From a bacterium (GTDB lineage: Bacteria > UBA9089 > UBA9088 > JAGUXG01), in the NCBI GenBank assembly GCA_043798435.1, contig JAZDOR010000128.1, forward strand, positions 1 through 45,419: a stretch of DNA of 45,419 nt, given 5' to 3'. This document shows, one piece after another, positions 1 to 45,419 of this stretch (its first letter is position 1; every line of letters starts with the position of its first letter). The notes beneath the pieces were generated by a model that did not search any database, was not told the origin of the DNA, and saw nothing but the letters and a program-made list of their open reading frames with translations. Position numbers and translations under genes: made by a program.

Positions 1-118
1 GATTTTTCAGGATTACAAAAGATTCTTATTTAATTCTTATCTTGTAAATCAGCGTTAATCTGCGTCCCATCTTTCTCCAATTCTCCCCTTTCCCAATTTC
101 TCCATCTTATAACGGTTA
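1..118 (-). repeat. Window-truncated copy of a class-1 word-hairpin element (inverted copy of 9806-9935)
   Basis: The reverse complement of 1-68 matches 9866-9933 (ggacgcagattaacgctgatttacaagata.gaattaaataagaatc...taatcctgaaaaatc) with a few mismatches. 69-118 mirrors 9806-9865 (ataaccgtt..ataagatggagaa). The terminus supplies the TAA stop of the adjacent CDS. Confidence 0.8.
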
Positions 119-1576
119 TTTGGAAAAGACCTCTGCCTGAAAGACTTCAAAGACTGCGTCTTTTCTCTTATAGGCGTCTTCAGCCAGCCCTGCCTTGAGT
201 GATAAGTGCATCAGGGTCTCGGGAAGTGTCCAGCCTTGCTCTGGTGCAACCTGTGGGAGAAAGACTGATTGCCTTCCACCTACATTCAAAACAATTCCAT
301 CCCTGCCAAGAACAATATCTGTCCAGGTTCCTATTTTCTCTGGCTCAGAAAGGACTGAAACCTCTATCTCCATATCAGGAAGCTCATCAACGGTGACAGG
401 GGGAAACCGATAATCTTTTGAACAGGCATTTATTGCATTCTCTATGACCGCCTGATATAAAGGCTTTATCGGCCAGATATAACCGATGCAACCCCTGAGG
501 TTTCCTGCTTTTTCTAAGGTGACAAAGACGCCTGAGGGCTCAGCAAGTCTTGAGCTTTTTAAGGAGAAGCCAGGAATTTTTCCCTCCTTCACAAAGAGTT
601 CCACTGTATCTTTCGCAATCTTTAGAAGCTCTTCCTTTTCTTCTTTAGTCAATCCCTTTTTGGTAAAGGCAATCCCAGCATAGCCTACAACACCATCCTT
701 TTTTCCATAGGGTGTATCCCCTGAATTATAATAGAGCAAGGTTTTTGGCTTTAGTTTGAGAAGCTTTGCCACCTTGAGACCTACAATAGTTGGGCTGATG
801 CCACAGAGGTATGTTGAAAGACCTGGAATTTTGGATGAATGGACCCCCATCTCCCTTTTTGTAAGCTCAATCTCATCAAGATTCTCAATCAAGGCTATGG
901 TCTCTCTGTCAACCTTGTTTGCCTCCTCATATTCTGGATAGTGTGAAAGGTCTGTGGAGACAATCACTATGGTTTTATCATTCATCACAGACTTTATAGC
1001 AGAAGCAAGCCTGTCAAACTCATCCATATCCACCCTTCCCACCAGGATAGGCACAATCTTTATCTCTGGAAAAAGCACCTTAAGATATGGAAGCTGAACC
1101 TCTATTGAATGCTCTGGTGCATCTGCCTCTGCTACCTCCGATAGCCCACAAGTCTCAGCAATCTTTTCTGCCTTCTCTTTATCAATAGAGAGCGTGCCAG
1201 GAGGAATCTCATAAGCATCCCCAAGATAGATAGATGGAGTGTCCAGCGGATAGTGGTGCGACACACCTAAAATTATAGCTGTCTCATAATCCTCCCCTTC
1301 CATCTGCTTAAAAGCCTCTGCTGCTGCCCTGCCTGAGTAAACATAGCCTGCATGGGGAACAATTAACATTTTGGGTTTCTGGTCAACTACCTTCTTGGCT
1401 TCAGAAAGAAACCCCTTTACCATTCCTTCACAAGCCTCCCTACCCCCTGGATAAAACCCGATTGCTGCTGGTTTTCTAATTCTCATAACCTTTTCCTCCT
1501 TCTCCTGCTTTACCCCTTCACAGGAGACAGCAAGAAAGATCAATCCTATAATAAAAATTGGCTTTTTCATAATCAA
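116..1576 (-). CDS. Memo-like (AmmeMemoRadiSam protein B) fused to an AMMECR1 domain (protein A), with a possible N-terminal signal/lipoprotein peptide
   Basis: Memo-type N-half (RKPAAIGFYPG, IVPHAGYVYSG, DLSHY). AMMECR1 C-half (GVFVTLEK.GNLRGCIGYI). The long form starts at TTG with MIMKKPIFIIGLIFLAVSC. An alternative ATG at 1486 is preceded by a strong GAAGGAGG. Confidence 0.85.
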   Translation of the reverse strand: MIMKKPIFIIGLIFLAVSCEGVKQEKEEKVMRIRKPAAIGFYPGGREACEGMVKGFLSEAKKVVDQKPKMLIVPHAGYVYSGRAAAEAFKQMEGEDYETAIILGVSHHYPLDTPSIYLGDAYEIPPGTLSIDKEKAEKIAETCGLSEVAEADAPEHSIEVQLPYLKVLFPEIKIVPILVGRVDMDEFDRLASAIKSVMNDKTIVIVSTDLSHYPEYEEANKVDRETIALIENLDEIELTKREMGVHSSKIPGLSTYLCGISPTIVGLKVAKLLKLKPKTLLYYNSGDTPYGKKDGVVGYAGIAFTKKGLTKEEKEELLKIAKDTVELFVKEGKIPGFSLKSSRLAEPSGVFVTLEKAGNLRGCIGYIWPIKPLYQAVIENAINACSKDYRFPPVTVDELPDMEIEVSVLSEPEKIGTWTDIVLGRDGIVLNVGGRQSVFLPQVAPEQGWTLPETLMHLSLKAGLAEDAYKRKDAVFEVFQAEVFSK

Positions 1577-1629
1577 CTAAATTGGAGAAGTTCCATCTAT
1601 ATTTTCTTACTTTATACCCAAACACATAC

Positions 1630-2358: not shown

Positions 2359-2360
2359 TA

Positions 2361-3355: not shown

Positions 3356-3751
3356 CTACTCTTTTAACATCAGCAGTTGTTCAATTCTTTCTATGAATCT
3401 CTGTGCATCGGTCACTACTTTTTCTGCCTTTTCTTGAGTAATGATTGCCTTCTCTTCATAGTCGCTATCTTCCCTTAGTTCCTTTGCATCCACAAGAATT
3501 TTTTGATATTCTTTTTCCACCAAACCTGTCTTTACAAAGTGAAGGGCAAACATTGATTTCACGCCTTTATGGGTAATTGGATTAAGCCTTTTGTTAATCA
3601 AGGCTGCCCTGGCAGCATGAAAGATAGCATAATAGGCTGGTGGAACAGCACCATCAAAGTCTCTTTCTTCAAGAAGATGTTTGGCTGTTTTAAGCTTGGA
3701 CTTACTCTTCTCTATCCGCAATGGTATCAGGTCTTTTAGGCTACCTTCCAT
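3356..3751 (-). CDS. HEPN domain protein (toxin partner of MNT)
   Basis: 131 aa, helical, with AIFHAARAAL and REDSDYEE (HEPN R-x4-6-H-like region). Overlaps the upstream MNT gene by 16 nt. Confidence 0.75.
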   Translation of the reverse strand: MEGSLKDLIPLRIEKSKSKLKTAKHLLEERDFDGAVPPAYYAIFHAARAALINKRLNPITHKGVKSMFALHFVKTGLVEKEYQKILVDAKELREDSDYEEKAIITQEKAEKVVTDAQRFIERIEQLLMLKE

Positions 3752-4107
3752 AAATCAACACCTTCCTTTCGAATATTTTCTAAAAATATGTTTGGTGTAC
3801 CAGCCGAAGAATCAAGGTATTCAGATTGATCCCTTATTTTCAAAGAGATGTCAACGAAGGAATCAAGAAAAACATCTGTTACTACTCCATAAACCATTCC
3901 TCTTAGCTCTAAATCCTCTTTGTCAACCACCAATAAGATATCAATATCTGATTGGCTATTGGCATCACCGCGGGCTTTGGAACCAAAGAGTTTAATATTC
4001 TTAATTCTTTCTGGAGCCACGGTTAATAAGCCTGAGAGCAGGTCTTTTATAGCCCCTTCTTCTTTTTGATTAAACCTTGCTTTTTTGGGGAGGTTAATTT
4101 TAATCAT
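3736..4107 (-). CDS. Minimal nucleotidyltransferase (MNT), partner of HEPN
   Basis: Pol-beta NTase motif LFGSKARGDANSQSDIDILLVV. The likely start is the ATG at 4107 (MIKINLPKK), within ATGATTAA overlapping the cyclase stop. The longer ORF start at 4137 lies inside the cyclase CDS. Confidence 0.8.
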   Translation of the reverse strand: MIKINLPKKARFNQKEEGAIKDLLSGLLTVAPERIKNIKLFGSKARGDANSQSDIDILLVVDKEDLELRGMVYGVVTDVFLDSFVDISLKIRDQSEYLDSSAGTPNIFLENIRKEGVDLWKVA

Positions 4108-4960
4108 TTTGATAAAGATAAGTTTTGACTCCGTCAATAGATTTATCCTCTTTGAAATTGGTTTTATCCATTAGCTTTTTATAGGTTTCCTCACCTATCC
4201 GTATCTCTCCAGGCTCAGAATGTTTTTGTAAATGCCCGGCGATGTCCATTACTTCACTTGTCCACTTTCCTTTCTCTTCAGCTTCATCTACAAGGCAAAC
4301 ACCAGTATTTATTCCAATCCTTACCATAATCGGCTTCTCCAACCTATTCCTTTCTTTGTTAAAATCACTTAATCCTTCCTGAATCTGGATTGCAGACTCA
4401 ACCGCCTTGTCAGGATTTTGAAAGGTGCAGAGTCCACCATCACCACTCCAGACTACCTCTCCATTATTCTCCTTCGCAATTCCTTCTACATGGTTATGAT
4501 ATTCATTGAAAGTGTATTTAATATCTAAAACATCTTTACCTTCTTTAATTACGGTTGAACCTGCCACATCAATAATTAAGAAGGTTATCTTCTTGTAAAA
4601 TTTTTCTTTTCTTCTGGCTTGCCAATAATCTTTATATTTAATTTCAGTCTTCGCAACTTGTTGTCCATCAATATACATGATTATTTCTTTATTTTTTAAA
4701 CTCCAAGTAACAGCAATCATGTGTCTTTGATTGGTGTCTAATAAAGAAACATCATGTTCAACATCAGTACGTCCTTTTCCTAAATAAACATGAAAGAATT
4801 TTAATCTATTATCACTATCTTTCACCATAAATATACCACCATTTGAAGGGCTGAGTTGAATTAGAGGAATTGTCTGACCATCATTAAATTGAACCTTACC
4901 CGCATTAATCCAAAAACTAATTGTACCTTCTTTTATATTATCCAACTTTTGATTATTCAT
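4100..4960 (-). CDS. LamG/ConA-like domain fused to a class III nucleotidyl cyclase catalytic domain
   Basis: N-half resembles Laminin_G_3 (GTISFWINAG...HMIAVTWS...IIMYIDGQQV). C-half has class III cyclase hallmarks (FLIIDVAGST, WSGDGGLCTF, VRIGINTGVCLV, DIAGHLQK..EPGEIRIGEETY). ATGA overlap with the upstream small ORF. Confidence 0.72.
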   Translation of the reverse strand: MNNQKLDNIKEGTISFWINAGKVQFNDGQTIPLIQLSPSNGGIFMVKDSDNRLKFFHVYLGKGRTDVEHDVSLLDTNQRHMIAVTWSLKNKEIIMYIDGQQVAKTEIKYKDYWQARRKEKFYKKITFLIIDVAGSTVIKEGKDVLDIKYTFNEYHNHVEGIAKENNGEVVWSGDGGLCTFQNPDKAVESAIQIQEGLSDFNKERNRLEKPIMVRIGINTGVCLVDEAEEKGKWTSEVMDIAGHLQKHSEPGEIRIGEETYKKLMDKTNFKEDKSIDGVKTYLYQND

Positions 4961-11946: not shown

Positions 11947-11975
11947 AATATACCGAGAATAAATCAGGTTTCCAA
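11947..11975 (-). promoter_or_regulatory. Putative sigma70 promoter of the MeTr-like gene, formed by a solo class-2 terminus
   Basis: On the minus strand: TTGGAA (11970-11975), 17 nt (ACCTGATTTATTCTCGG), TATATT (11947-11952), 45 nt upstream of the ATG at 11901. Confidence 0.55.
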
Positions 11976-11997
11976 AAAAAATTGATTACCTTTTATC

Positions 11998-12158
11998 GTA
12001 ACCGTTCAGGCTATACATCAAGAGTGTAAGAAGGGGGATAAGGAGATAATGGGGATATGGAGATATTCATTTTTAATTCTTAATTTTTAATTCAAAATTT
12101 TATCCCCTTATCTCCATAATCTCTATATCTCCTTTTTTTACACTACCGCAGCGATTAC
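11998..12158 (+). repeat. Class-1 word-hairpin element with ggagataagg/ccttatctcc core
   Basis: Termini gtaaccgttcaggctatacatcaagagtgtaag ... ttacactaccgcagcgattac. Inverted paralog at 36196-36340, related copy at 40875-41029. Confidence 0.85.
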
Positions 12159-14506: not shown

Positions 14507-14734
14507 TATGATAATAAGTGTATGGAAAAAAAAGAAGCAAGTCAAGAAGAATGTAAACTGCGATTCAGAATATAAAGATGATAACGACGGCTGTTTAGAA
14601 TGGGAAATAAGTAATATCAACGCTCCAAACCTGATTCGACATAAACCGTCTGTCCTTTAAAACAAAAACGAGTCAAACCTTGCCGTTGCTGGGATGGTTC
14701 ATTTTATCGTTTTTCCCTATGATTTCTTTTGGAA

Positions 14735-15045
14735 ATTGGAAATTAGAAATTGGGAAGAAAAGATTCTGCTTCTGTGCTATACCTAAAAGAAATTGGTTTA
14801 CAAAAAAGTAACTACTCAGGTTCAAGGATTAAAAAGTTCACGGTTCAAGGTTCACGGTTAATCCTCTTATTCTCTAACCTTGAACTTTGAACCTCAGAAC
14901 TATAAACGAATCAGGTTCAAGGTTCACGGTTAATCCTCTTATTCTCTAACCTTGAACTTTGAACCTCAGAACCATAAACGAACACAATTTTTGCAAACCT
15001 GATTTATTTAGGTATAATTTCAAATTTCTAATTTCAACTTCATCT
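14735..15045. repeat. Composite class-2 element: nested inverted repeats with a 72-bp internal tandem duplication
   Basis: Outer gaaattagaaatt / aatttctaatttc. Termini tatacctaaaagaaattggtttacaaaaaa (14778) and tttttgcaaacctgatttatttaggtata (to 15016). The ggttcaagg...ccttgaac hairpin is present twice (14842-14910, 14914-14982). Confidence 0.85.
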
Positions 15046-16937: not shown

Positions 16938-16945
16938 AATTAAAG

Positions 16946-17009
16946 TGATTAGTTATCGGTAATCAGGTGATCGGTAATACTGATAACCGATTACTGATGA
17001 CCGATTACC
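16946..17009. repeat. Word repeat ggtaatc / gattacc in both orientations, between glmS and the upstream gene
   Basis: gtgattagttatcggtaatcaggtgatcggtaatactgataaccgattactgatgaccgattacc read directly. Imperfect palindrome. Confidence 0.6.
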
Positions 17010-17043
17010 AAGATTTTACTTCAGATAGCTAAAGTGCTACAAT

Positions 17044-18401: not shown

Positions 18402-18565
18402 TATACCGAAAAGAAATTGGTTTACCAAAAAAAAGTAACTACTCAGGTTCAAGGGGCTAAAGGGTTCAAGGTTCACGGTTAATCCTCTTATTCTTTAACC
18501 TTGAACTGTGACCTCAGAACCATAAACGAACACAATTTTTGTAAACCTGATTTATTCTCGGTGTA
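18402..18565. repeat. Class-2 word-hairpin element (ggttcaagg core) with both termini
   Basis: tataccgaaaagaaattggtttaccaaaaaaaa ... ggttcaaggttcacggttaatcctcttattctttaaccttgaac ... tttttgtaaacctgatttattctcggtgta. On the minus strand the left terminus reads TTGGTA-17-TATAAC, 22 nt upstream of the ATG at 18377. Confidence 0.85.
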
Positions 18566-18767: not shown

Positions 18768-18897
18768 CCTCGTCTAATTGATATATCTTTTTAGTCTATA
18801 GTCTGATGTCTAAGTCTCGTGTCTATTTCGTTAGTCTGAGTCTGGAGTCTTAGGCTACTTAAATTTTTGCTAAACCATGTTTTCATTAGGTATGCTT
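18768..18897. repeat. Partial class-2 element (agac/gtct core, right half only)
   Basis: About 105 bp nearly identical to 33803-33898 (atatatct.tagtctatagtctgatgtctaagtctcgtgtctatt.cgttagtctgagtctg.agtcttaggctacttaaatttttgctaaa). A related stretch occurs at 32424-32492. Confidence 0.8.
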
Positions 18898-20973: not shown

Positions 20974-20990
20974 TTCAAACCTCCTTAAAT

Positions 20991-21085
20991 TAGTTTAGAG
21001 TTTTTAGTTTAGAGTCATACGCATTTTCCTTACCTCTTAACTCTCTATATTAACTATACACTCTACACTATTAACTATACACTTA
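20991..21085. repeat. Word element built from tagtttagag and tatacac words
   Basis: tagtttagagtttttagtttagag ... taactatacactctacactattaactatacac. The same words occur at 5947-5963, 36031-36092 and in the tandem array at 45278-45419. Confidence 0.65.
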
Positions 21086-21145
21086 TATTTATATATCGGC
21101 ATTTTCTGCCTTTTGCTTTAATTATATCTATTTTTCTGTATCTTG

Positions 21146-22900: not shown

Positions 22901-23006
22901 AAGATAAGGAGAAGGGGAGAATTGGAGAGAATTCAGAATACAGAATTAAGAATATTCTGACTCCTATTAACCTTCTGAAGTTTCTCCATCTTCCCCTTTT
23001 CTCCTT
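22901..23006. repeat. Word hairpin using ggagaa/ttctcc and cagaata/tattctg words
   Basis: aagataaggagaaggggagaattggagagaattcagaatacagaattaagaatattctgactcc...tttctccatcttccccttttctcc. Confidence 0.6.
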
Positions 23007-23028
23007 TTATATTTACTTTAGCCTACCT

Positions 23029-23422: not shown

Positions 23423-23593
23423 GAGAAATAAAAAATTAGACACTGATATACACAGATGGTCACAGAAAAGATATTTAGACACTGATTTACACAGATACTC
23501 ACAGATAATTTTTTAATTCTTATCAGTGTAATCTGTGTTAATCTGTGTCAAAAATATTTTCTTTAGGGTTTTCGTTTTTCGGGTTTTCGTGTT
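23423..23593 (-). repeat. 172-bp cacagat/atctgtg element, left copy of a near-identical inverted pair
   Basis: The reverse complement differs from 27339-27510 at only 3 positions (2 substitutions, 1 single-base indel). Confidence 0.95.
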
Positions 23594-27338: not shown

Positions 27339-27510
27339 AACACGAAAGCCCGAAAAAACGAAAACCCTAAAGAAGATATTTTTGACACAGATTAACACAG
27401 ATTACACTGATAAGAATTAAAAAATTATCTGTGAGTATCTGTGTAAATCAGTGTCTAAATATCTTTTCTGTGACCATCTGTGTATATCAGTGTCTAATTT
27501 TTTATTTCTC
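27339..27510 (+). repeat. 172-bp cacagat/atctgtg element, right copy of the inverted pair
   Basis: See 23423-23593. Lies between the two PEP-synthase-like genes. Confidence 0.95.
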
Positions 27511-29474: not shown

Positions 29475-29620
29475 TATGCCCAATGAAAATTGGTTTGCAA
29501 AAATTCAGACAGACATCAGACATCAGACTAAAAATCTTCCCTTTAAGTCTGAAGTCTAATGTTCTTGAGTCTATAGTCTTTTTTAACCATCTTTTTGCAA
29601 ACCTGATTTGTTTGGGTATA
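29475..29620. repeat. Class-2 word-hairpin element (cagac/gtctg core) with both termini
   Basis: tatgcccaatgaaaattggtttgcaaaaa ... cagacagacatcagacatcagac ... aagtctgaagtct ... ctttttgcaaacctgatttgtttgggtata. Confidence 0.8.
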
Positions 29621-30749: not shown

Positions 30750-30904
30750 CTGTAAACGAATAGAACGAATTAAACTAAAAAGAATAAATAGATTTGTTAA
30801 ATTCGCTTAATTCGTTTACCTATAAATCAAAATTGAAGAGGCACTACTCAAGTAGCAAGAATACAGAATTCAGGAGTCAGAATTCAGAATACCTGAACAG
30901 TTAT
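30750..30904. repeat. Two adjacent word hairpins (aacgaat/attcgtt, then cagaat words) ending in cctgaacagttat
   Basis: gtaaacgaat (30752-30761) pairs perfectly with attcgtttac (30810-30819). This is followed by caagaatacagaattcaggagtcagaattcagaatacctgaacagttat, which resembles a class-1 terminus. Confidence 0.65.
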
Positions 30905-32337: not shown

Positions 32338-32492
32338 TATACCGAGAATAAATCAGGTTTACAAAAAGATGGTAAAAAAGACCATGGACTTCAGACCATA
32401 GACACGAGACTCAGACTTTTTAATTAATATATCTTTTTAGTCTATAGTCTGATGTCTAAGTCTCGTGTCTATTTCGTTAGTCTGATGTCTAC
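32338..32492. repeat. Class-2 element with left terminus only (agac/gtct core)
   Basis: tataccgagaataaatcaggtttacaaaaa ... agacacgagactcagac ... gtctaagtctcgtgtct. On the minus strand the terminus reads TTGTAA-17-TATAGT, facing nusA. Confidence 0.8.
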
Positions 32493-32696
32493 ATAGAAAA
32501 CGAAAATATATAAAAATTAGCCTTTTTACGAAAGAGTCAAAGAGTCATTTTTAAACATTTTGGTTTATAAACAACAATTTAACCCAAAGGATGCAAAATA
32601 TGGGTAGTTACATAAATTTGCAAAAGTTCAGTAATTACCTTTTCTGTGGGATTTTTATTGACACAGATGAGAGCTTGAATATATCTTTTGTAAGTA

Positions 32697-33677: not shown

Positions 33678-33905
33678 TATACCGAGAATAAATCAGGTTT
33701 CCAAAAAAGGTGGTTGAAAAAGACTATAGACTCAAGAGCATTAGACTCAAGACTATTTTATTACAAAGACTCAAGAACATTAGACGCAAGACTAAGACCT
33801 TTTAATTGATATATCTTAGTCTATAGTCTGATGTCTAAGTCTCGTGTCTATTTTGTTAGTCTGAGTCTGTAGTCTTAGGCTACTTAAATTTTTGCTAAAT
33901 CATGT
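33678..33905. repeat. Full class-2 element (agac/gtct core) whose right terminus overlaps the tyrA stop
   Basis: tataccgagaataaatcaggtttccaaaaaa ... agactcaag words ... gtctaagtctcgtgtct ... cttaggctacttaaatttttgctaaatcatgttttcatt. The last 6 nt are the final tyrA codon plus the stop (...MKT*). Confidence 0.8.
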
Positions 33906-34724
33906 TTTCATTGGACATATCAAACCCTTTGCATCTTTTTGTATCTCTTGAAATTTCTCCAAAATATCACCCCTCTCAATTGCTTCCTGCCACTCAGAGA
34001 TTATATCCTTCATCTTAGATAACCCCGACAAAATATTGCTTTTGTTGGTCAAGCATATTTCATTCCAGAGAGAAGGAGGGGATAAGCTCAACCTGGCCAT
34101 ATCAGTAAATCCAGTAGAAACAAGGGCTTCTGCACCTCCTCTCTTTACCAAATCCACCAGAGAAAAAGAGAGGATATGCGGAATATGAGAGGATAGGCTG
34201 ACTATCCTGTCGTGTTCTTCTGCATCCATCTCTATCACTTTTGCCCCAATCTTTTCCCAGAGATGGCAAACCTTCTCTTTTGCAGATGTGTCTGTATCCT
34301 TGGTTGGCGTGACCACAACTAAGGAGTTAGAAAAGAGTGAGGCAGAGGCTGATTCTGAACCTTGTCTGTGTGAACCAGCCATTGGGTGACTGCCAATAAA
34401 TTTAGGAAGGATGGGGGATAGTTCACTCACTATTCTCTCTTTTGTTGAGCCGGCATCAGTGACTATGCTCTCTTTGGCAAAATGAGAGAGTTTCTTTCCA
34501 ATCTCTATGATGGCTAAAGGCGGTGTGGCAAGAAATATGAGGTCTGCATACTCTGCCCTGTTCAGGTCATCTGTTGCTTCGTCTATACAGCCAAGTTCTT
34601 CGGCTTTTTTGAGGTTCTCCCTGCTCCTTCCAATCCCAATAACCTTGTTTGCCAATCCCTTTGCTTTTATCGCCAGACCAATAGAACCACCAATCAAACC
34701 GACACCTACTATAGCTATTTTCAT
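33900..34724 (-). CDS. tyrA: Prephenate dehydrogenase
   Basis: MKIAIVGVGLIGGSIGLAIK Rossmann fold, GSHPMAG, HD...S.SH.PH. Confidence 0.88.
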   Translation of the reverse strand: MKIAIVGVGLIGGSIGLAIKAKGLANKVIGIGRSRENLKKAEELGCIDEATDDLNRAEYADLIFLATPPLAIIEIGKKLSHFAKESIVTDAGSTKERIVSELSPILPKFIGSHPMAGSHRQGSESASASLFSNSLVVVTPTKDTDTSAKEKVCHLWEKIGAKVIEMDAEEHDRIVSLSSHIPHILSFSLVDLVKRGGAEALVSTGFTDMARLSLSPPSLWNEICLTNKSNILSGLSKMKDIISEWQEAIERGDILEKFQEIQKDAKGLICPMKT

Positions 34725-35737: not shown

Positions 35738-35796
35738 AATGCTAAAATTATAGGTGGGGCAAGTTAGTTTAGCAAGGATTTTTTGTATTGCCTTAT

Positions 35797-36024: not shown

Positions 36025-36030
36025 GTAAAA

Positions 36031-36092
36031 TAGTGCATAGTTAATAGTTATTACCTTATACTAAACACTATACACTAAAAACTATACACTTG
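36031..36092. repeat. tatacac/ctaaac word spacer between the two tRNAs
   Basis: tagtgcatagttaatagttattaccttatactaaacactatacactaaaaactatacact. These words are the reverse complement of the 45278-45419 array unit. Confidence 0.6.
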
Positions 36093-36094
36093 TA

Positions 36095-36195: not shown

Positions 36196-36340
36196 GTAAT
36201 CGCTGCGGTAGTGTAATAAAAGGGGATATGGAGATTAAGGAGATAAGGGGATAAAATTTTGAATTAAAAATGAATTATCTCCATATCTTTTCTTATCTCC
36301 TTATCCCCTCACACTTTTGATGTATAGCCTGAACGGTTAC
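36196..36340 (-). repeat. Class-1 word-hairpin element (ggagataagg core), inverted paralog of 11998-12158
   Basis: gtaatcgctgcggtagtgtaa ... ggagattaaggagataagggg ... ccttatcccctcacacttttgatgtatagcctgaacggttac. Confidence 0.85.
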
Positions 36341-38945: not shown

Positions 38946-40115
38946 ATGAAAATATGGAAAAGTTTATCAGGAAAAATAGAAGGGAGTGTTATCACCTCCG
39001 GGATATTTGACGGCATTCATATTGGCCATCAAACCTTGATAAAGAAGACTGTAAAATCTGCCAAAAAAAGGGGTATTCCCTCTATCCTTCTCACCTTCCA
39101 TCCACATCCAAGGTCTGCTCTCTTTATCCTTGCCGAAAAGGAGAGAGAAAGGCTTATTGAAGAGCTTGGGATAGACATAATGCTCTACTTAGACTTTAAT
39201 GAGATAAAAGACCTTCAGCCAGAGAGGTTTGTCCAAGAGATTCTTATAGAAACCCTTGGTATGAAAGAGATATGGATAGGCTCCGACCATAGGTTTGGAA
39301 AAGCTCAGGAGGGAGATGTAGGGCTACTCCGTAAGCTCTCTGGCAGATATGATTTTGAGGTTTTCTGTATGAGTGATGTCATTTTAGAGAATGAAAGGGT
39401 GAGCAGCTCTAAGGTAAAAGAGCTTTTGGCTTCTGGCAGGATACAAGAAGCAGAAAGGCTTTTGGGAAGACCATACACTGTGAATCTTCCGGTAATAAAG
39501 GGTGCAGGCAGGGGAAAGGGAATGGGTGCCAAGACAGTAAATATGGACTGGCCAGACATTTTTCTCCCAAGGCTTGGGGTCTATGGTGTGAAGGTGAAAA
39601 TAGTCCACAGTCAACAGTCCACAGTCCACAGTGAAGAGGCAAAAATAGTCAATAGTCAACAGTCAATAGTCAATAGACAGCAGAATACAGAATACAGAAT
39701 ACAGAATACAGAATACAGTAAAGAAGAGAGTCAACAGTCAACGGTCAACAGTCCACAGTCAACGGTCAATAGTAAAGAAAAGGAGACTATGGACAATGGA
39801 CTATGGACTATGGACAATTTTGATGGAGCTGAGCTTGATGGGATAGGAAACCTTGGAAGAAGACCCACATTCTCTGAAAACGAGCTCCTCTTTGAGGTTC
39901 ATATCTTCGGGTTTTCTGGAAATCTTTATGGAAAAAACCTTTCTGTCCAATTTTTAGAGTGGATACGGGATGAGATAAGGTTTTCCAGCAAAGAAGCCCT
40001 CTCTGCCCAGATCAAGAAGGATATAGAAAAACTTGCCAGAAGAAGGGGTGATATAGTATCCTATGGGGGTTGCGCCTGTGGCTCAATGGAAGAGCAACGG
40101 ACTTCTAATCCGTAG
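38946..40115 (+). CDS. ribF: Bifunctional riboflavin kinase / FMN adenylyltransferase carrying a 73-codon repeat-derived insertion
   Basis: FAD-synthetase half (GIFDGIHIGHQ, LTFHPHP). Kinase half (GRPYTV...G.GRGKGMG..T.N...GVYGV ... GNLGRRPTF...FEVHIF.F.G.LYG..L.V.F...IR.E.RF). Interrupted at 39600-39818. The 3' end overlaps tRNA-Arg. Confidence 0.88.
   Translation: MKIWKSLSGKIEGSVITSGIFDGIHIGHQTLIKKTVKSAKKRGIPSILLTFHPHPRSALFILAEKERERLIEELGIDIMLYLDFNEIKDLQPERFVQEILIETLGMKEIWIGSDHRFGKAQEGDVGLLRKLSGRYDFEVFCMSDVILENERVSSSKVKELLASGRIQEAERLLGRPYTVNLPVIKGAGRGKGMGAKTVNMDWPDIFLPRLGVYGVKVKIVHSQQSTVHSEEAKIVNSQQSIVNRQQNTEYRIQNTEYSKEESQQSTVNSPQSTVNSKEKETMDNGLWTMDNFDGAELDGIGNLGRRPTFSENELLFEVHIFGFSGNLYGKNLSVQFLEWIRDEIRFSSKEALSAQIKKDIEKLARRRGDIVSYGGCACGSMEEQRTSNP
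39600..39818 (+). repeat. In-frame word-repeat insertion inside ribF
   Basis: agtccacagtc / atagtcaatagtc words, then cagaata x5, then agtcaacRgtc words, then gactatggac words (approximate reverse complement of gtccacagtc). 219 bp = 73 codons with no stop. Encodes VHSQQSTVHS...NTEYRIQNTEY...MDNGLWTMDN. Confidence 0.85.
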
Positions 40116-40874: not shown

Positions 40875-41029
40875 GTAACCGTTCAGGTAGTGTAAGAAAA
40901 GAGAATATGTAAGGGGATATTATAGAGAGATAAGGAGATATTATTCTAATTCAAATCCTTCATCTCCATATCCCCATTATCTCCGTATCCCCCCTCTTAC
41001 ACTCTTTGATGAATAGGCTGAGTGATTAC
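40875..41029 (+). repeat. Class-1 word-hairpin element (ggagata core)
   Basis: gtaaccgttcaggtagtgtaagaaaag ... gagataaggagatatt ... atctccatatccccattatctcc ... cttacactctttgatgaataggctgagtgattac. Confidence 0.8.
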
Positions 41030-41034: not shown

Positions 41035-42009
41035 CTAACAGGAAAGCCACTTAGCCACATCTTTAGCAAAGTAGGTGATGATTATATCAGCACCTGCCCT
41101 CTTTATGCAGGTTAGAACCTCCAGGACAACCCTCTTTTCATCAAGAAATCCTGAAGAGCCCGCAGCCTTAATCATAGAATACTCACCACTCACTGAATAG
41201 GCGGCAACTGGATAGCCAGTCTCTTCTTTTACCCTGAGAATGAGATCAAGATAGGCTAAGGCAGGCTTCACCATCACAATATCCACACCCTCAGCTATAT
41301 CCAGCCGTATCTCCCTTAAAGCCTCGTCGCTGTTGGCAATGTCTAATTGATACGAACTCCTGTCTGAAAAGCGTGGAGCACAGTCTGCCGCCTCCCTGAA
41401 GGGTGAATAGAAAGAGGAGGCATATTTGGCTGAATATGACATAATGGCCGTATCAGAAAAGCCTGCTTCATCCAAACACTTTCTGATAGCAGCGACCCTT
41501 CCATCCATCATATCAGAGGGAGCAACCATATCAGCTCCAGAGGCTGCCTGGGATAGGGCTATCTTTGCCAGAAGCTCTAAACTTTCGTCATTTGCAACCT
41601 TGCCATTTCTTACTATCCCACAATGACCAGAAGTTGTATACTCACAGAGGCATGTATCAGTAATCACTATCATATCTGGCACATTAGCCTTAATCTCAGC
41701 CACTGCCATCTGGATTATCCCATCCTTGGCGTAGCTTTCAGACCCCATCTCATCCTTTATCTTTGGTATCCCAAAAAGAAGAATGGCTGGAATGCCAAGA
41801 GTCTTTGCCTCCCTCACCTCTTCTATAAGCGTATCTATAGAGAAATGAAAGATGCCCGGCATAGACCTTACCTCTTTTCTTATGCCTTTGCCGTGGACAA
41901 CAAAGTATGGCATAACAAGGTTATCTATAGAAAGCCTTGTTTCCCTTATCATTCTTCTCAAAGCCTCAGATTTACGCAACCTTCTTGGTCTATAGATAGG
42001 AAAATACAT
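41035..42009 (-). CDS. hemB: Porphobilinogen synthase (delta-aminolevulinate dehydratase)
   Basis: RPRRLR, DTCLCEYT.SGHCG (Zn-type Cys cluster), MVAPSDMMDGRV, SYSAKYAS.FYGPFR-like, VMVKPA, YSVSGEY. Start at the ATG at 42009, preceded by GGGAGG. The ORF-track extension is repeat-derived. Confidence 0.93.
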   Translation of the reverse strand: MYFPIYRPRRLRKSEALRRMIRETRLSIDNLVMPYFVVHGKGIRKEVRSMPGIFHFSIDTLIEEVREAKTLGIPAILLFGIPKIKDEMGSESYAKDGIIQMAVAEIKANVPDMIVITDTCLCEYTTSGHCGIVRNGKVANDESLELLAKIALSQAASGADMVAPSDMMDGRVAAIRKCLDEAGFSDTAIMSYSAKYASSFYSPFREAADCAPRFSDRSSYQLDIANSDEALREIRLDIAEGVDIVMVKPALAYLDLILRVKEETGYPVAAYSVSGEYSMIKAAGSSGFLDEKRVVLEVLTCIKRAGADIIITYFAKDVAKWLSC

Positions 42010-42043
42010 CTTTACCTCCCATATGCAATCTGATAGATAGCTC

Positions 42044-42155
42044 GATATAAATAGAACACGGATAACGCTGATGAAATGGATAAACACGGATTTTTATATT
42101 TTAATCTGTGTAAATTCGTAGTATCCGTGTCATCTGCGTGCTATTATCTCTTATT
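42044..42155. repeat. 112-bp cacggata/tatccgtg element upstream of hemB
   Basis: gatataaatagaacacggataacgctgatgaaatggataaacacggatttttatattttaatctgtgtaaattcgtagtatccgtgtcatctgcgtgctattatctcttatt. Paralogs at 43336-43445 and 43461-43571. Confidence 0.85.
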
Positions 42156-42196: not shown

Positions 42197-43294
42197 TTAC
42201 GGCGCATCTAAACACATACCATTCTCTATATAACAACAAGGGTCCTCTGCCCAGATATCTTTATTAGAAAACCCTGCTCTAACCCGACAGCCACCACATA
42301 TATCTTTATATTTACACTCGCCACATCTTCCAGTAAGATAGTGTTCCTTTTCTCTGAGTTTAACTAAGAATTCATTTTCATTCCAGATTTGACTAAATCC
42401 TTTTTCTCGGATATTCCCTAAGCTTTCTCTCCAGAACTGGCAGGGATAGAGATCCCCTTTTGGGTCAATACAGACCAATTTCTTACCTGCAGAGCATCCA
42501 CTATACATCAGCAAGTGCTTTCTTGTCCGCTCTTTTTCCTCTTGAGGCACATAATTTAATAGACTTACGCCATCTGCTGGGTTGCAGACAGTGAGTATCT
42601 CTAATCTATCGGAAAGCTCTTCTGCCTTTTTTAGAAGATACTCAATATACTCACCCCTCTCAGAATTGTCAAGGTCATACTCCGTAATATCCCTTCCCCT
42701 TCCAGTATAAACAAGGTTATAGATACATAGCCTCTTAATCCCTTCCGATAGCACAAGCTCAATTATCCCGGGAAGCTCTTTTAGGTTTAGCTTGGTAATG
42801 GTAAGCCTCACCCCTGCCTTTATTCCTTCTTTTTTTAAGAGCCGTAAGCCCTCTAAGGCTTTATCAAAAGCACCCTCTACCCTTCTAAACTTATTATGTG
42901 TCTCCCTAAGTCCATCAAGGCTTATGCCGACATAAGAAAAACCTGAGTCTTTAATCTTCTTTGCCACATCAAAAGTGATTAAAGAGCCATTGGATGAAAT
43001 AGCCGTCTCTATCCCCCTTTCTTTAGCCAGGGCACCCAACTCAAAGATGTCTGGTCGCAGAAGAGGTTCTCCTCCAGAAAGGAGAAGCAGGGAGACCCCC
43101 ATATTAGCTAAATCATCAATTAAGCCTTTTGCTTCCTGGGTAGATAGCTCATTCTGATACTCTTTGTCAGAGGCAGAGATATAGCAGTGGCAACAACTAA
43201 GATTGCATCTATTGGTAATATTCCAGGCTACTATTGGCTTGCTCATTGCAGAGCTTGCCGACTCTCCCTTTAATAACTTAGTAATTCTAATCAT
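42197..43294 (-). CDS. Radical SAM / SPASM-domain enzyme, AhbC/AhbD/NirJ-like (probable alternative heme pathway)
   Basis: ITNRCNLSCCHCY radical-SAM cluster. GGEPLL. C-terminal SPASM Cys pattern (CSAG...C.....CGECKYKDICGGCRVRA). Adjacent to hemB. Start at the ATG at 43294. Confidence 0.7.
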   Translation of the reverse strand: MIRITKLLKGESASSAMSKPIVAWNITNRCNLSCCHCYISASDKEYQNELSTQEAKGLIDDLANMGVSLLLLSGGEPLLRPDIFELGALAKERGIETAISSNGSLITFDVAKKIKDSGFSYVGISLDGLRETHNKFRRVEGAFDKALEGLRLLKKEGIKAGVRLTITKLNLKELPGIIELVLSEGIKRLCIYNLVYTGRGRDITEYDLDNSERGEYIEYLLKKAEELSDRLEILTVCNPADGVSLLNYVPQEEKERTRKHLLMYSGCSAGKKLVCIDPKGDLYPCQFWRESLGNIREKGFSQIWNENEFLVKLREKEHYLTGRCGECKYKDICGGCRVRAGFSNKDIWAEDPCCYIENGMCLDAP

Positions 43295-43335
43295 AATTTG
43301 TAAAATTATATATGTAATCCGATATAGATAACTTA

Positions 43336-43571
43336 ACATAAATAGCACACGGATAACGCTGATGAAACGGATATTCACGGATTTTTATATTTCATCTGTG
43401 TCCATCCATAGTATCCGTGTCATCCAAAGTGCTATTCTATTTTAAGCCATCATTGAAGTTGACATAAATAGCACACGGATAACGCTGATGAAACGGATAT
43501 TCACGGATTTTTATATTTCATCTGTGTCCATCCATAGTATCCGTGTCATCTGCGTGCTATTATCTCTTATT
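43336..43571. repeat. Two tandem copies of the cacggata/tatccgtg element upstream of the radical SAM gene
   Basis: Copies at 43336-43445 and 43461-43571 are nearly identical over about 95 bp (acataaatagcacacggataacgctgatgaaacggatattcacggatttttatatttcatctgtgtccatccatagtatccgtgtcat). Confidence 0.9.
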
Positions 43572-43574: not shown

Positions 43575-45275
43575 CTAATCTATACTGCCTACTGTTCCAC
43601 TGCCTCCTGCCTCCGAACCTTTTATCCCATAGAGAACAATCATCCTTTCTGCAATCTCACGAAATACGGGTGCGGCAATTGTTCCTCCATATCTTACCCC
43701 TGCTTGTGGCTCATCTATCATCACCAGTATAGCTACCTTTGGATCTTCTGCTGGAAACCACCCGACAAAGGAGGCAACAACCTTATCCTTGTCATATCCG
43801 TGAGGGGAAGCCTTCTCTGCTGTTCCTGTCTTTCCACAAATCTTGTATCCCGCAATTTTAGCTGAAACACCTGTTCCTTTCTCAACAACATCAATCATTA
43901 TATCAGATACCTGCTTTGCCACCTCGCAAGAAATAACCCTTCTCTTCACAGAGGGATAATACTCCTTCACTATGTAATCCTTTCCCTCTGAGACCCGAGA
44001 GACCAGGACAGGTTTGACAAGTAAGCCTTGATTGGCAATAGTGCTGATAGCCATCAATACCTGAAGGGGTGTAACGCCAATCCCATAGCCAAAGGAGAGA
44101 TTAGACTTTGCAAGCTCAGAGGGTTTGTTTCTTGGCAAAATTCCTTTCTCTTCCTCAGCAAGACCAATTCCTACTTTATCTCCAAATCCAAACTGCTTGA
44201 GATAATCAACTAAAATTTTGCCGTCTAATCTCTGGACAGCCTGAGTCATGCCCACATTACAAGAGTTTATCAAGACATCCCTGAAGGTCTGGTCTCCGTG
44301 TTTATGGACGCAGGAGATTTTTCTCCCTCCTACCTCCATACTTCCTGGACAGAAGAATTTATCACCCTCCTTCACCACCCCTTCCTGTAATAATATGGCA
44401 CAGACAACAGCCTTGAGAAGTGAGCCTGGTTCTGTAATCCAAGAGATGGCTCTATTTTTTAAGCTATCTTTTTCAACCTTTTTCCACTCAGACGGGTTCC
44501 AGTCAGAATAGACATTTGGATCAAAAGATGGCCAGCTACAACTGGCAAGAATCTCACCAGTCCCAACTGCCATCACAATTACAACCCCTCCCTTTGCCTG
44601 ATATTTCAAGCAGGTTTCTTTCAACCTCTTATAGGCAAGGTATTGGATGTTTGAAGAGATAGAAAGAGAAAGGTTATATCCACAAAGCTTCTCTGGAAAT
44701 CTCTCTTTGGTATAGGTAATAGAGCCTACGCCATCTTTTTCTATCACTATCTTCTGGCTTCTGCCTGCAAGATACTTATTCCATGCCCCTTCAATCCCAC
44801 AAAGCCCTTGAATCTTCTCGGCATCATCCTCAAATTTTACAAAACCGAGAAAGCTGCCTATGGGTTCACCTAAGGGGTAAAACCTCTTACATTCAGGAAG
44901 AAAGTTGATATTAGGAATCTTTTCTCTTTCTATCTTTTCTGCCAGACTCCTTGGAATTCTCCGAACAATCCAACCCACCTTTTTGGGGGAGGCTCCACAC
45001 AGCCTGGCTATTTTAGATAAATCTTTGCTTTGCATTCTTTTGGGAGAATAAATAGACCAGGTCTCATTACTCATAGCTAAAATTTCATTATCCCTATCAA
45101 ATATTGTGCCGCGTGGCATGACATAAGTTCTATCTCTTTTCTGTATCCTGTTTGCCTTCTTGACAAACTCACCCCTTTTTATTACCTGAATATCAAATAA
45201 ACGGACAACAACCACAAGAAAGACAAGGACTGTTATCGCCCAAACAATGATTATTCTTTTTTGATATGGTCTCAT
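43575..45275 (-). CDS. Class B penicillin-binding protein (FtsI/PBP2-type peptidoglycan D,D-transpeptidase)
   Basis: N-terminal TM anchor, PBP dimer domain (RGTIFDRDNEILAMS). Transpeptidase motifs SLLK (in EPGSLLKA), SCN, KTGTA. Confidence 0.88.
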   Translation of the reverse strand: MRPYQKRIIIVWAITVLVFLVVVVRLFDIQVIKRGEFVKKANRIQKRDRTYVMPRGTIFDRDNEILAMSNETWSIYSPKRMQSKDLSKIARLCGASPKKVGWIVRRIPRSLAEKIEREKIPNINFLPECKRFYPLGEPIGSFLGFVKFEDDAEKIQGLCGIEGAWNKYLAGRSQKIVIEKDGVGSITYTKERFPEKLCGYNLSLSISSNIQYLAYKRLKETCLKYQAKGGVVIVMAVGTGEILASCSWPSFDPNVYSDWNPSEWKKVEKDSLKNRAISWITEPGSLLKAVVCAILLQEGVVKEGDKFFCPGSMEVGGRKISCVHKHGDQTFRDVLINSCNVGMTQAVQRLDGKILVDYLKQFGFGDKVGIGLAEEEKGILPRNKPSELAKSNLSFGYGIGVTPLQVLMAISTIANQGLLVKPVLVSRVSEGKDYIVKEYYPSVKRRVISCEVAKQVSDIMIDVVEKGTGVSAKIAGYKICGKTGTAEKASPHGYDKDKVVASFVGWFPAEDPKVAILVMIDEPQAGVRYGGTIAAPVFREIAERMIVLYGIKGSEAGGSGTVGSID

Positions 45276-45277
45276 GA

Positions 45278-45419
45278 TAGTTTAGAGTGTATAGTTTAGA
45301 GTGTATAGTTTAGAGTGTATAGTTTAGAGTGTATAGTTTAGAGTGTATAGTTTAGAGTGTATAGTTTAGAGTGTATAGTTTAGAGTGTATAGTTTAGAGT
45401 GTATAGTTTAGAGTGTATA
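45278..45419. repeat. 14-bp tandem array (tagtttagagtgta), about 10 copies, running off the window edge
   Basis: Perfect 14-nt periodicity read directly from 45278 to the end of the window. Begins 2 nt upstream of the PBP start codon. Confidence 0.95.

Follow-up and report, generated by a model that had tools for sequence, protein, structure and literature searches.

STRR heptamers and SDR of heterocystous cyanobacteria were reportedly described by Mazel in 1990 and Elhai in 2008, and Ogata in 2000 is said to have found Rickettsia palindromic elements lying in frame within protein-coding genes. Intergenic heptameric repeats are over-represented in Nostoc (PMC4692102). Elements of the IS630 family target the dinucleotide TA, which is duplicated upon insertion (PMC2170065). 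The inverted repeats of IS66 are 20-30 bp long, start with GTAAGCG and are associated with 8-bp direct repeats (PMC11946415); in Pseudomonas the IS66 repeat reads GTAACCGTCCGGGCA (PMC12888890).

The window considered here is the whole analysed stretch of 45,419 nt from an uncultured bacterium, whose GlmS shares 92% identity with the one from a Candidatus Desantisbacteria MAG. Many of its spacers hold word-hairpins, long and imperfect palindromes with arms built from tandem words. With a probability of roughly 80%, these are copies of MITEs which carry the ends of two known IS families and slippage-prone short tandem repeats in their arms. Their density is unusual, yet they are a kind of selfish DNA already known: where the sequence-only reading saw no described family, MITEs with IS630-family or IS66-like ends provide a described class that fits. 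Hairpins are real at most of the sites that it listed, but they do not occupy nearly every intergenic spacer, as it had claimed. Word-hairpins occur in 16 of the 30 spacers of at least 50 bp, some dispersed repeat is found in 22 and none in eight, and dispersed repeats account for 8% of the window, or for 39% when only the DNA between its genes is counted. Among the exceptions, 18775-18894 is a half element, the sites at 9.26 kb (9252-9287), 37.09 kb (37076-37108) and 30.87 kb hold direct arrays only, lacking a complementary arm (the first two stand alone), the hairpin at 20985-21095 is weak, and the site at 39.68 kb lies within the ribF reading frame instead of a spacer. The features are as follows (L numbers denote loci outside the window; z compares the fold of single-stranded DNA with 200 dinucleotide shuffles).

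1..111, no strand assigned: incomplete family A copy with inner GCAGATTAACGCTGATT core and TTCTCC-word arm; the window begins inside it; matches the reverse complement of 9822-9930 at 89% identity
9806..10016, + strand: family A MITE with IS66-like ends, exact GTAACCGTTCAGGTAGT at 9806 and degenerate right end ...GCGAACAGTTAC at ~10005-10016; GGAGAA/TTCTCC word arms outside, GCAGAT-word hairpin inside; its first 59 nt provide the final ~19 codons of def (ORF 9328-9864); RNA fold of 9800-10022, -72.8 kcal/mol; z = -3.3 for 9850-9990
11949..11978, - strand: solitary IS630-type end, TTTTTGGAAACCTGATTTATTCTCGGTATA on the minus strand, 100% identical to 33678-33708; it lies 48 nt upstream of the gene start at 11901 and has the look of an outward sigma-70 promoter
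11998..12158, - strand: family E MITE with IS66-like ends, GGAGATAAGG words, 8-bp duplication CTTTTATC; copies at 36.2 and 40.9 kb
14729..15040 (14729-14777 + 15017-15040), no strand assigned: GGAAATT-word hairpin, a multi-copy repeat split near its apex by the element at 14778-15016; uninterrupted paralogues in L137, L198, L167, L229 and L188 (79-96% identity)
14778..15016, + strand: C-type MITE with IS630-type ends, GGTTCAAGG words, 72-bp internal tandem duplication and TA target duplication
16945..17010, no strand assigned: GGTAATC/GATTACC word hairpin, ends unclassified; z = -5.3; 3-4 related metagenome copies with varying word numbers
18402..18565, + strand: C-type MITE of 164 bp with IS630-type ends and dispersed copies, ~160 bp being the commonest metagenome size class; ORF 17403-18476 starts inside it, so that the first ~33 codons are probably non-coding
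18775..18894, + strand: D-type half element, right arm of AGTCT-type words and degenerate IS630-type end; 95% identical to 33803-33912; no hairpin (z = +0.4, unfolded)
20985..21095, no strand assigned: family H, weak hairpin of TAGTTTAGAG / ACTATACAC words; z = -2.1; related long array in L170
22003..22108, + strand: free-standing C core of 106 bp with IS66-like ends, GTAACTACTTTAGG ... CCTGAATAGTTAC; z = -3.9
22905..23012, no strand assigned: hairpin of outer GGAGAA/TTCTCC and inner CAGAATA words, ends unclassified; z = -4.2; 15 partial metagenome matches
23423..23593, + strand: family B copy 1, CACAGAT words with a period of ~10, matching the reverse complement of 27339-27510 at 98% identity; z = -4.7 for 23440-23560
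27339..27510, - strand: family B copy 2, in opposite orientation to copy 1; ORF 26481-27398 begins within it
29475..29620, + strand: D-type MITE of 146 bp, CAGACAT / AGTCT words, IS630-type ends as in the C type with an unrelated core; z = -6.15
30750..30822, no strand assigned: AACGAAT/ATTCGTT hairpin; z = -5.5; near-identical copies elsewhere (L200, L234), truncated in L229
30840..30904, + strand: direct array of CAGAAT words terminating in an IS66-like end, CCTGAACAGTTAT
32338..32497, + strand: D-type element, left IS630-type end and word hairpin; right end not found
33678..33919, + strand: D-type MITE of 242 bp with both IS630-type ends, the right one overlapping the 3' end of gene 33900-34724; RNA fold of 33670-33899, -64.2 kcal/mol
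36026..36094, no strand assigned: family H words in the tRNA-Leu/tRNA-Met spacer, pairing weak
36196..36340, + strand: family E MITE, 8-bp duplication GAAAAACC; z = -3.0
39596..39820, + strand: heptamer arrays in the ribF ORF (AGTCMAY, CAGAATA, GACTATG), the outer arrays complementary (inverted repeat)
40875..41029, + strand: family E MITE, 8-bp duplication AATTGCT(G/A)
43379..43571, no strand assigned: family F, ATCCGTG / CACGGAT words, two direct copies flanking a hairpin; a third copy at 42047-42155 lies upstream of hemB
45277..45419, + strand: family H, perfect 14-nt array of ATAGTTTAGAGTGT, 10.2 copies, continuing past the window end

Different loci had been thought to use unrelated words; loci with a common word turn out to be copies of one dispersed repeat (86-98% identity over 45-170 bp), not independent inventions. 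All queried families recur in a 646 kb set of metagenome-scan contigs, mostly drawn from the one metagenome containing this population, with the exception of the two short fragments G2 35790-35830 and H 36026-36094. Family E is represented there by 16-19 near-full-length copies. Family F is low in copy number, with only three matches in the metagenome loci, and may represent a common 5' leader instead of a MITE. The short gat-taac-gat pattern, GATTAACRCNGATT, proposed to link otherwise unrelated cores is real (six matches against 0.07 expected) and confined to three related core types, A, B and F, with at least one copy in each. The conserved ends are likewise borne out: CCTGARYRGTTAY has nine matches where 0.5 are expected, bordering hairpins with differing words, and an end module of ~30 nt has four against none expected, looser matching giving 11 end copies in the window. 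The idea of mobile elements whose ends are conserved while their repetitive cores vary is supported, the ends being terminal inverted repeats accompanied by target duplications, but there is more than one family: two or more types of end are present, besides nested composites and a number of arrays without any ends. Recognisable ends were found neither at 16945-17010, 22905-23012 and 30750-30822 nor in families B, F and H.

The first end type, of about 28 nt, consists of TA followed by TACC…AAATCAGGTTTGCAAAAA. Six full-length elements outside the window carry it, each with an IS630-family transposase, and both ends could be read in four. In L135 (68-2010) the two ends enclose an ORF with DDE_3 and HTH domains (E = 1e-30); L164, L165, L227, L245 and L247 are also transposase-bearing and have the same terminal module. 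The word-bearing terminal repeats of a 226-bp MITE in L161 match those of L135, which is consistent with a MITE origin by internal deletion. A scan for this end returned 115 contigs, mostly from a single metagenome, Ga0180007/Ga0180009; complete elements measure 132-259 bp, and 160 bp is the most frequent length. The TA duplication is seen directly in the window, ctgtgc-TA[TACC...GGTA]TA-atttcaaa compared with ctgtgcTAatttcaaa in empty paralogues. This end is shared by three or more large core clusters that have no relation to each other (C with 24 members, CAGAAT with 15 and D with 11, besides many small ones), and B-type cores also occur within IS630-type ends in the metagenome, for example in L147. 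There is no transposase gene in the window, and the sole trace of an IS630-type transposase in this population's contigs is a 41-residue remnant in L136; the elements have probably been mobilised in trans within this genome.

The second end type starts GTAA(C/G/T)CG..CAGG(TAGTGTAAGA) and comes with target duplications of 8 bp. Copies of family E start with GTAAGCG, GTAACCG or GTAATCG, and the three found within the window all have such direct repeats. In other MAGs GTAACCGTTCAGG ends are paired 113-296 bp apart (two wider pairs are due to chance), and 7-8 of the 8 flanking bases are identical in 22 of 41 pairs. In MAGs labelled Anaerolineales and Poribacteria, multiple copies of the same 17-nt end occur around GC-rich cores of a quite different kind. 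The assignment to IS66 goes by end sequence and duplication length only, because no IS66 transposase (tnpA-tnpB-tnpC element) with matching ends was found in the ~1.4 Mb of loci searched. A clean 8-bp duplication is found neither at the A copy (9806-10016) nor at 22003-22108.

Mobilisation by a transposase supplied in trans would need the ends only, leaving cores free to differ, swap and nest. Elements insert into each other, which gives rise to onion-like palindromes. The one demonstrated case of nesting is the insertion at a TA near the apex of the GGAAATT-word hairpin, and apices may be preferred targets more generally. The words would be short tandem repeats, mostly heptamers, that gain and lose units via replication slippage; as complementary words pair in any register, the hairpin would survive such changes. 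Word number varies independently in the two arms, which points to slippage: in the CAGAAT family, left arms of 2-7 words occur with right arms of 4 (once 8; r = -0.15), and in the C family a left arm of 12, 28, 29, 35 or 56 nt is combined with a right arm of 20-22 nt (r = -0.02). It is these copy-number differences that suggest slippage. Turnover of the elements is recent: strains that are ~98% identical overall have a family E element in the 22.0-22.1 kb spacer where the window has the C-core element, and in relatives at 72-74% GlmS identity the spacers around glmS are compact.

The best-surviving alternative, though an improbable one, is that functional RNA or DNA structure is primary (bidirectional terminators, mRNA-stabilising 3' hairpins or protein-binding arrays) and that selection keeps the architecture while the words drift neutrally. 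The folds speak for structure: eight of the loci listed above beat their dinucleotide shuffles, with z from -3.0 down to -6.15, and stable folds are enriched in spacers, z falling below -3 in 21% of mostly intergenic 150-nt sliding folds compared with 2.3% of coding ones. Many elements lie directly downstream of genes, and the IS630-type end resembles an outward sigma-70 promoter (TTGCAA, 16 nt, TATAAT at 14991-15018), with the ends at 11949 and 18402 sitting 25-50 nt upstream of likely gene starts; some elements may act as promoters or terminators. The common RNA-structure requirement that the sequence-only reading had considered nonetheless finds no support: across 15 E copies the main stem contains zero compensatory pairs (covariation term +0.41), and the elements show no clear orientation bias relative to flanking genes. 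One-sided changes in E favour G-U over A-C (~21 versus 9 cells, which are non-independent), a faint hint of pairing in one strand. Terminator-like sites are unenriched (24 versus 19.4 expected), the apices are AT-rich and a consistent T-run is lacking, Rfam families other than tRNA are absent, and close relatives do without the hairpins. Moreover, the target duplications and the empty site demonstrate that the elements arrive by insertion.

Still less probable is an origin in place, as a product of host replication in which heptamer slippage makes an array and intrastrand template switching (quasipalindrome correction) mirrors it. Tandem repeats most often have a period of seven (20 of 64 arrays, with 7 more at period 14), and the direct arrays at 9.26 and 37.09 kb stand alone. 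The ribF array, which lacks transposon ends, grew stepwise at one site, at 0, +33, +57 and +219 nt in L011, L010, L009 and the window, in frame and with complementary outer arrays kept; protein alignment gives 73 extra codons relative to the insert-free ribF of L011. It seems to have expanded in place, and transposition therefore need not explain every word array. The independent word numbers of the two arms are, however, the opposite of templated symmetry, which tells against the 'templated' option raised earlier, and the majority of hairpins exist as dispersed, near-identical copies bounded by terminal repeats and target duplications. That the elements are of the REP/REPIN type, mobilised as single-stranded hairpins by a RAYT (IS200/IS605-like TnpA), is very improbable: palindromic, intergenic and high-copy as they are, they measure 100-240 bp rather than 20-40 bp, share one end type with DDE-transposase IS630 elements, have no Y1 transposase among the window ORFs read, and misfit the once-suggested IS200/IS605 or RAYT partner because they make target duplications (TA or 8 bp), which IS200/IS605-type transposition is not known to produce.

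As MITEs, the elements come closest to those derived from IS630/Tc1-mariner transposons (bacterial Stowaway-type counterparts; the ISY100 family of cyanobacteria), with which they share the TA duplication (PMC2170065), terminal inverted repeats of ~25-30 nt in common with HTH + DDE_3 full-length elements, and a short, non-coding, multi-copy nature. They differ in having many unrelated cores per end type and long hairpins of tandem 7-10-nt words, in being nested and very dense (39% of intergenic DNA) in a candidate-phylum host, and in that a transposase was not found in the window, nor clearly in the population. With the IS66 family and MITEs bearing its ends they have in common the GTAAGCG/GTAACCG start and 8-bp direct repeats (PMC11946415, PMC12888890), a link by end sequence and duplication length only. 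Nezha, other cyanobacterial MITEs, Correia, ERIC and BOX are likewise intergenic, palindromic, stable and target-duplicating (reviewed in PMC3184786), and internal tandem repeats also appear in BOX and a Porphyromonas MITE (PMC4596501); the likeness observed is architectural, and here the 7-10-nt words are mirrored in both arms and several families have ends in common. The ribF insert parallels what is reported of the Rickettsia palindromic elements, being an in-frame palindromic repeat tolerated in an essential-type gene and adding a peptide loop, but it consists of heptamer arrays expanded in place without recognisable ends and is not a fixed-length copy. The STRR and SDR of cyanobacteria reportedly also form heptamer arrays in spacers, sometimes as inverted pairs, and mosaics of nested small repeats, whereas the present arrays belong to another phylum, use other words and lie within defined transposon ends.

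The word-hairpins, imperfect intergenic palindromes with arms of tandem 7-10-nt words and their reverse complements, had been put down to a mobile or templated element family or to a common requirement for RNA structure. The mobile reading was right: they are MITEs, and their ends are those of two insertion-sequence families already known. The observation itself is largely real but overstated. Inverted-repeat and tandem-repeat scans recovered the listed words at the listed places, and long imperfect hairpins were seen in the spacers in RNA folds, the check that the sequence-only reading had proposed. DNA folds gave z = -3.0 to -6.2 for eight tested elements (200 dinucleotide shuffles), and with sliding 150-nt folds 21% of the mostly intergenic windows fell at z < -3 vs 2.3% of the coding windows. 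The commonest tandem-repeat period is 7. An exact tandem 6-mer test for mirrored arrays found only 4 bins vs ~0 in shuffles, but is too strict for imperfect words, and fold z-scores were used instead. Repeats occupy 8.3% of all nucleotides in the window and 39% of those that lie between genes. Nearly every spacer was said to carry a word-hairpin; among the 30 spacers of at least 50 bp this is true of 16, while 22 hold a repeat of any kind and 8 none. Some individual loci also fell away: 18775-18894 is a half element rather than a hairpin (z = +0.4), 20985-21095 is a hairpin but only a weak one (z = -2.1), those at 9.26, 30.87 and 37.09 kb have their words in direct orientation with no complementary arm, and the one at 39.68 kb lies not in a spacer but within the ribF reading frame.

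In a self-comparison, loci with the same word proved 86-98% identical over 45-170 bp and form dispersed families (forward-strand coordinates):

1-111 and 9822-9930: family A
23423-23593 and 27339-27510: family B
14.8, 18.4 and 22.0 kb: family C
18.8, 29.5, 32.4 and 33.8 kb: family D
12.0, 36.2 and 40.9 kb: family E
42.1 and 43.4 kb: family F

All queried families recur in 646 kb of metagenome-scan contigs, mostly from the metagenome that holds this population, with the exception of the short fragments G2 (35790-35830) and H (36026-36094). The two family B copies are 98% identical and inverted, and the 3.7 kb between them hold a histidine kinase gene, a toxin-antitoxin region and the start of a PEP-utilising enzyme gene; HicA/HicB homologues were called in a related assembly (L001) in the stretch that aligns with 25884-26388 of the window.

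Two types of end bound these cores. The inner type is a terminal inverted repeat of 13-23 nt that begins GTAACCGTTCAGG(TAGTGTAAGA) and is present in both orientations. Its 13-nt motif CCTGARYRGTTAY occurs nine times in the window (0.5 expected), always bordering a word array on the outside, whichever the word, and a longer end, GTAACCGTTCAGGTAGTRTAAGA, is common to families A and E. Each of the three E copies of the window sits between 8-bp direct repeats (CTTTTATC, GAAAAACC and AATTGCT(G/A)), and an E copy of a near-identical strain between copies of TTTYACTC. E copies in the metagenome begin with GTAAGCG, GTAACCG or GTAATCG (GTAAGCGTTCAGG, GTAACCGTTCAGG, GTAATCGCTGCGG), and their conserved end reaches ~23 nt. 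The IS66 family is characterised by 20-30-bp inverted repeats with a GTAAGCG start and by 8-bp direct repeats (PMC11946415), and a Pseudomonas IS66 end reads GTAACCGTCCGGGCA (PMC12888890); the inner type shares both the start of the inverted repeat and the 8-bp direct target repeats. An IS66-type element, with tnpA, tnpB and DDE transposase genes between or next to such ends, was not found in the retrieved loci, and for that reason the ends are named only 'IS66-like'. The ORFs adjoining unpaired ends encode DprA, a nucleotidyl transferase and an LTD-domain protein. Long pairs of terminal inverted repeats in L085 and L098 and the ORFs of L060 were considered as an autonomous IS66-type element and proved to be due to chance or to be ordinary genes.

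The distribution of the IS66-like end was followed with the 17-mer GTAACCGTTCAGGTAGT in one genome per species (596 Gb), where ~69 chance matches are expected and single matches are therefore uninformative. Several MAGs carry from 5 to >20 copies, in which the ends are paired 113-296 bp apart (two wider pairs are due to chance), and 22 of 41 such pairs in other MAGs have 7-8 of 8 flanking bases identical. The cores within these ends differ wholly by host: those of an Anaerolineales MAG and a Poribacteria MAG are GC-rich and without words, those of low-GC MAGs are word-built. The multi-copy MAGs are labelled Anaerolineales, Poribacteria, Chloroflexaceae and, in several cases, simply as unclassified 'bacterium' (L013-L129); protein similarity to the window gave no taxonomic placement for those rich in IS66-like MITEs. 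A 17-nt end with its own core in each MAG group suggests an insertion-sequence lineage of wide distribution. The same is suggested for both end types by their presence in MAGs labelled as several different phyla.

The outer type of end, IS630-type, is ~28 nt long and begins TATACC..GGTTTGCAAAAA, again in both orientations. A ~30-nt module, TATACCGAGAATAAATCAGGTTTCCAAAAAA, flanks word-hairpins in either orientation, with 11 end copies in the window, and serves as the terminal inverted repeat of the following elements:

14778-15016: element with IS630-type terminal inverted repeats
18402-18565: element with IS630-type terminal inverted repeats
29475-29620: element with IS630-type terminal inverted repeats
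33678-33919: element with IS630-type terminal inverted repeats

A metagenome scan for this end returned 115 contigs, most of them from Ga0180007, the sample holding this population. Complete elements there measure 132-259 bp, mostly 160 bp; TATA...TATA bounds every one of them, and no longer duplication was seen. Behind one 22-23-nt end stand clusters of 24 (GGTTCAAGG words), 15 (CAGAAT) and 11 (AGACT) as well as many small ones, all with unrelated cores, and the earlier impression of conserved ends joined to unrelated cores is thereby borne out.

For the IS630-type end a candidate autonomous element can be named. In L135 two ends, at 68 and 2010, enclose an ORF (751-1812) of 353 residues with DDE_3 (E = 1.2e-30), HTH_33 and HTH_23 domains, i.e. 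the single HTH + DDE transposase within matching inverted repeats that is expected of IS630/Tc1-mariner; an extra ORF of 121 residues lies on the opposite strand. Two further elements of 1.12 kb (L164, L165) have a matching end on both sides, and three more transposase-bearing contigs (L227, L245, L247) carry the terminal module. All six derive from other samples. A 226-bp MITE (L161) ends in the word-bearing terminal repeats that the L135 element also has, as would be expected had it arisen by internal deletion from an element of that kind. In contigs of this population the only trace of the IS630-type transposase is a 41-residue remnant (L136). Contigs of ~1.1-2 kb without host labels carry abundant homologues of the L135 transposase, the two retrieved coming from other samples. 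A long end pair in L225 (2629 bp) encloses ordinary genes and no transposase.

Insertion can be read from an empty site. When the two flanks of 14778-15016 were joined by a single TA and compared with other contigs, they matched uninterrupted sequence in five of them: the empty sites read ...ctgtgcTAatttcaaa..., the window ...ctgtgc TA[TACC...GGTA]TA atttcaaa.... These filled and empty paralogous sites show the TA target duplication directly. Insertion at TA with TA duplication is a defining trait of IS630/Tc1-mariner transposition (PMC2170065). The element sits near the apex of another word-hairpin, a multi-copy one with GGAAATT words, and nesting recurs elsewhere. The C core is free-standing with IS66-like ends at 22003-22108 and also lies within IS630-type ends as the 160-bp C-type, which then spread as one unit; in the metagenome B-type and E-type cores are likewise found within or beside IS630-type ends. 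Families A and B have an inner core, GATTAACRCNGATT, and an apex, TTAATTCTTA, in common. The short motif that the sequence-only reading saw in otherwise unrelated cores is thus present, but the cores are not unrelated, and it is because A and B share these parts that they seemed to be so linked.

The words themselves vary in number among the copies of a family, independently in each arm. In the CAGAAT family there are 2-7 words on the left and 4 (once 8) on the right (r = -0.15), and C-type arms measure 12, 28, 29, 35 or 56 nt on the left and 20-22 nt on the right (r = -0.02). This independence argues against templated copying from arm to arm, and the 'templated' option offered earlier is set aside on these figures. 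Replication slippage within each array would produce independent changes in the two arms, and the hairpin would survive the gain or loss of words because complementary words can pair in any register. What appears to be the clearest case of array growth in place is ribF (38946-40115), where inserts at one spot, between GVYGVKV and the conserved GNLGRRPTF motif, measure 0 (L011), +33 (L010), +57 (L009) and, in the window, +219 nt. The relatives have 0, 11 and 19 codons at this position; the window has in-frame heptamer arrays of 219 nt at 39596-39820, encoding 73 residues and confirmed by a second sample (P0121). Outside ribF only one other perfect array of the AGTCAAC type was found. The 3' end of the ribF ORF runs into tRNA-Arg (40072-40146), and its C-terminus is unlike that of its relatives.

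There is a slim chance that the word arrays are not slippage debris but do some work, for the elements or for the host, which could take two forms. Some Tc1-like transposons have an inverted-repeat/direct-repeat organisation, and the arrays could by analogy be phased arrays of binding sites. The terminal repeats of L135 are unusually long (~105 bp) and each already contain a heptamer array (ATGGCAA/ATGTCAA); such arrays are not in the terminal repeats of four full-length relatives (L164, L165, L245, L247), so that this clade of elements can do without them. Alternatively, a heptamer-specific expansion process in the host lineage, akin to cyanobacterial heptamer repeats, could build self-registering hairpins and even lengthen the essential RibF in frame. 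In this second case the MITE ends would meanwhile be spreading ready-made promoter and terminator modules across the genome.

Selection for structure, according to which functional hairpins keep the architecture in place, finds no support: 15 aligned E copies show no compensatory pair along the main stem, with a covariation term that is slightly unfavourable, the elements show no clear orientation bias relative to flanking genes, and terminator-like sites are not enriched. Sites that resemble intrinsic terminators (GC-rich stem and T-run) numbered 24 vs 19.4 expected in 1-20 kb, where only one terminator-like site (18832-18857) falls within a listed element. The RNA-structure requirement proposed earlier is accordingly left without support. 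A strain ~98% identical overall has another family in the 22.0-22.1 kb spacer, in a locally more divergent tract, and around glmS the spacers of relatives whose GlmS is 72-74% identical are compact. The IS630-type end looks like a promoter that points outward, and at some sites a likely gene start follows closely downstream of it; elsewhere it points in the wrong direction, and any regulatory use would be a side effect.

Two repeats look different. A conserved stretch of ~90-110 nt with ATCCGTG/ATCTGTG words (42047-42155, 43336-43424, 43462-43571) precedes what are probably the true starts of hemB (41035-42087) and of a radical-SAM gene (42197-43378); the third copy adjoins, and the listed N-termini of both ORFs (…FISVIRVLF…) derive from it. 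With few copies elsewhere, it could be a common leader or regulatory region of tetrapyrrole genes instead of a mobile element. ATATTTCTTGCTACTGCAAGAAATAT, a short conserved palindrome with CTTGA(C/A)A after it, occurs at 22850-22899, 32235-32267, 35795-35820 and 35867-35899, once ~45 nt upstream of tRNA-Leu, with more copies in the metagenome; it looks more like an operator beside a -35 box than a MITE.

The elements also affect annotation and assembly. Gene callers have likely mis-set ORF ends at the following places, and the annotated RibF carries a repeat-encoded loop of ~73 residues:

9806-9864: C-terminus of def, where the listed ORF ends inside a repeat element
18402-18476: N-terminal extension of ORF 17403-18476, in a repeat element
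27339-27398: N-terminal extension of ORF 26481-27398, in a repeat element
33900-33919: 3' end of gene 33900-34724, in a repeat element

The window starts inside a family A copy (1-111) and ends inside a perfect 14-nt array of 10.2 copies (45277-45419), and at both ends a repeat has probably broken the assembly. The breaks in many related contigs fall ~100 nt from an IS630-type end, and repeats account for the poor assembly of this lineage's genomes. Parts of the window were found at 96-99.8% identity in independent assemblies (L001, L163, L186, L204, L209, L241), and the repeats are therefore not assembly artefacts.

The host has a G+C of ~41% in the window, most genes on the minus strand and four tRNA genes, beyond which no Rfam match reached the gathering score in the window. 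A heterocystous cyanobacterium, the first guess from the heptamer style, was ruled out by GlmS (15114-16937), which shares 92% identity with a protein attributed by name to a Candidatus Desantisbacteria MAG, and by a gene content that is not that of cyanobacteria. No recorded protein matched this GlmS exactly, but contigs nearly identical to the window were retrieved. ORF 6136-9261 encodes a TPR-domain protein whose N-terminal half holds an acidic repeat of 30 residues (…EEPLQPEIQAETPAEESLEDILG…); the underlying 90-nt unit is present in ~13 imperfect copies at 6442-7584. HEPN and nucleotidyltransferase genes lie at 3356-4137. A 577-residue AAA_21/AAA_15 ATPase (37181-38914; AbiEii-like, OLD-type family by Pfam name) lies between a 199-residue gene and ribF; since these two are adjacent in a sister MAG (L010), with no ATPase gene between them, it is a probable inserted gene of defence type.

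REP/REPIN sequences are 20-40-nt palindromes without target duplication and are linked to a Y1 (RAYT) transposase. The suggested RAYT partner does not fit: the elements are 100-240 bp long with duplications, and no Y1 transposase was seen among the window ORFs read. MITEs are smaller than ~300-500 bp without coding capacity and have terminal inverted repeats, a target duplication, many copies and an autonomous partner. Complete elements of the window are 106-242 bp long and those of other genomes 113-296 bp, and they consist of repeats and AT-rich loops; both end types form terminal inverted repeats, and dispersed copies are many. Target duplications are of 8 bp (3/3 E copies, 22/41 pairs elsewhere) or of TA, with empty paralogous sites. 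A candidate autonomous partner with matching ends was seen for the IS630-type only in other samples and not found for the IS66-like type in the retrieved loci; hairpins at 16945-17010, 22905-23012 and 30750-30822 and those of families B, F and H have no recognisable ends and are candidate members only. The class is a familiar one, MITEs that bear the ends of two insertion-sequence families already described, and no new kind of element or mechanism is revealed. The elements stand out for how densely they lie, for their nesting and for arms with word arrays prone to slippage, and offer a compact natural case of one set of transposon ends carrying many unrelated, fast-changing cores, in which nesting and empty vs filled sites are readable straight from the sequence.
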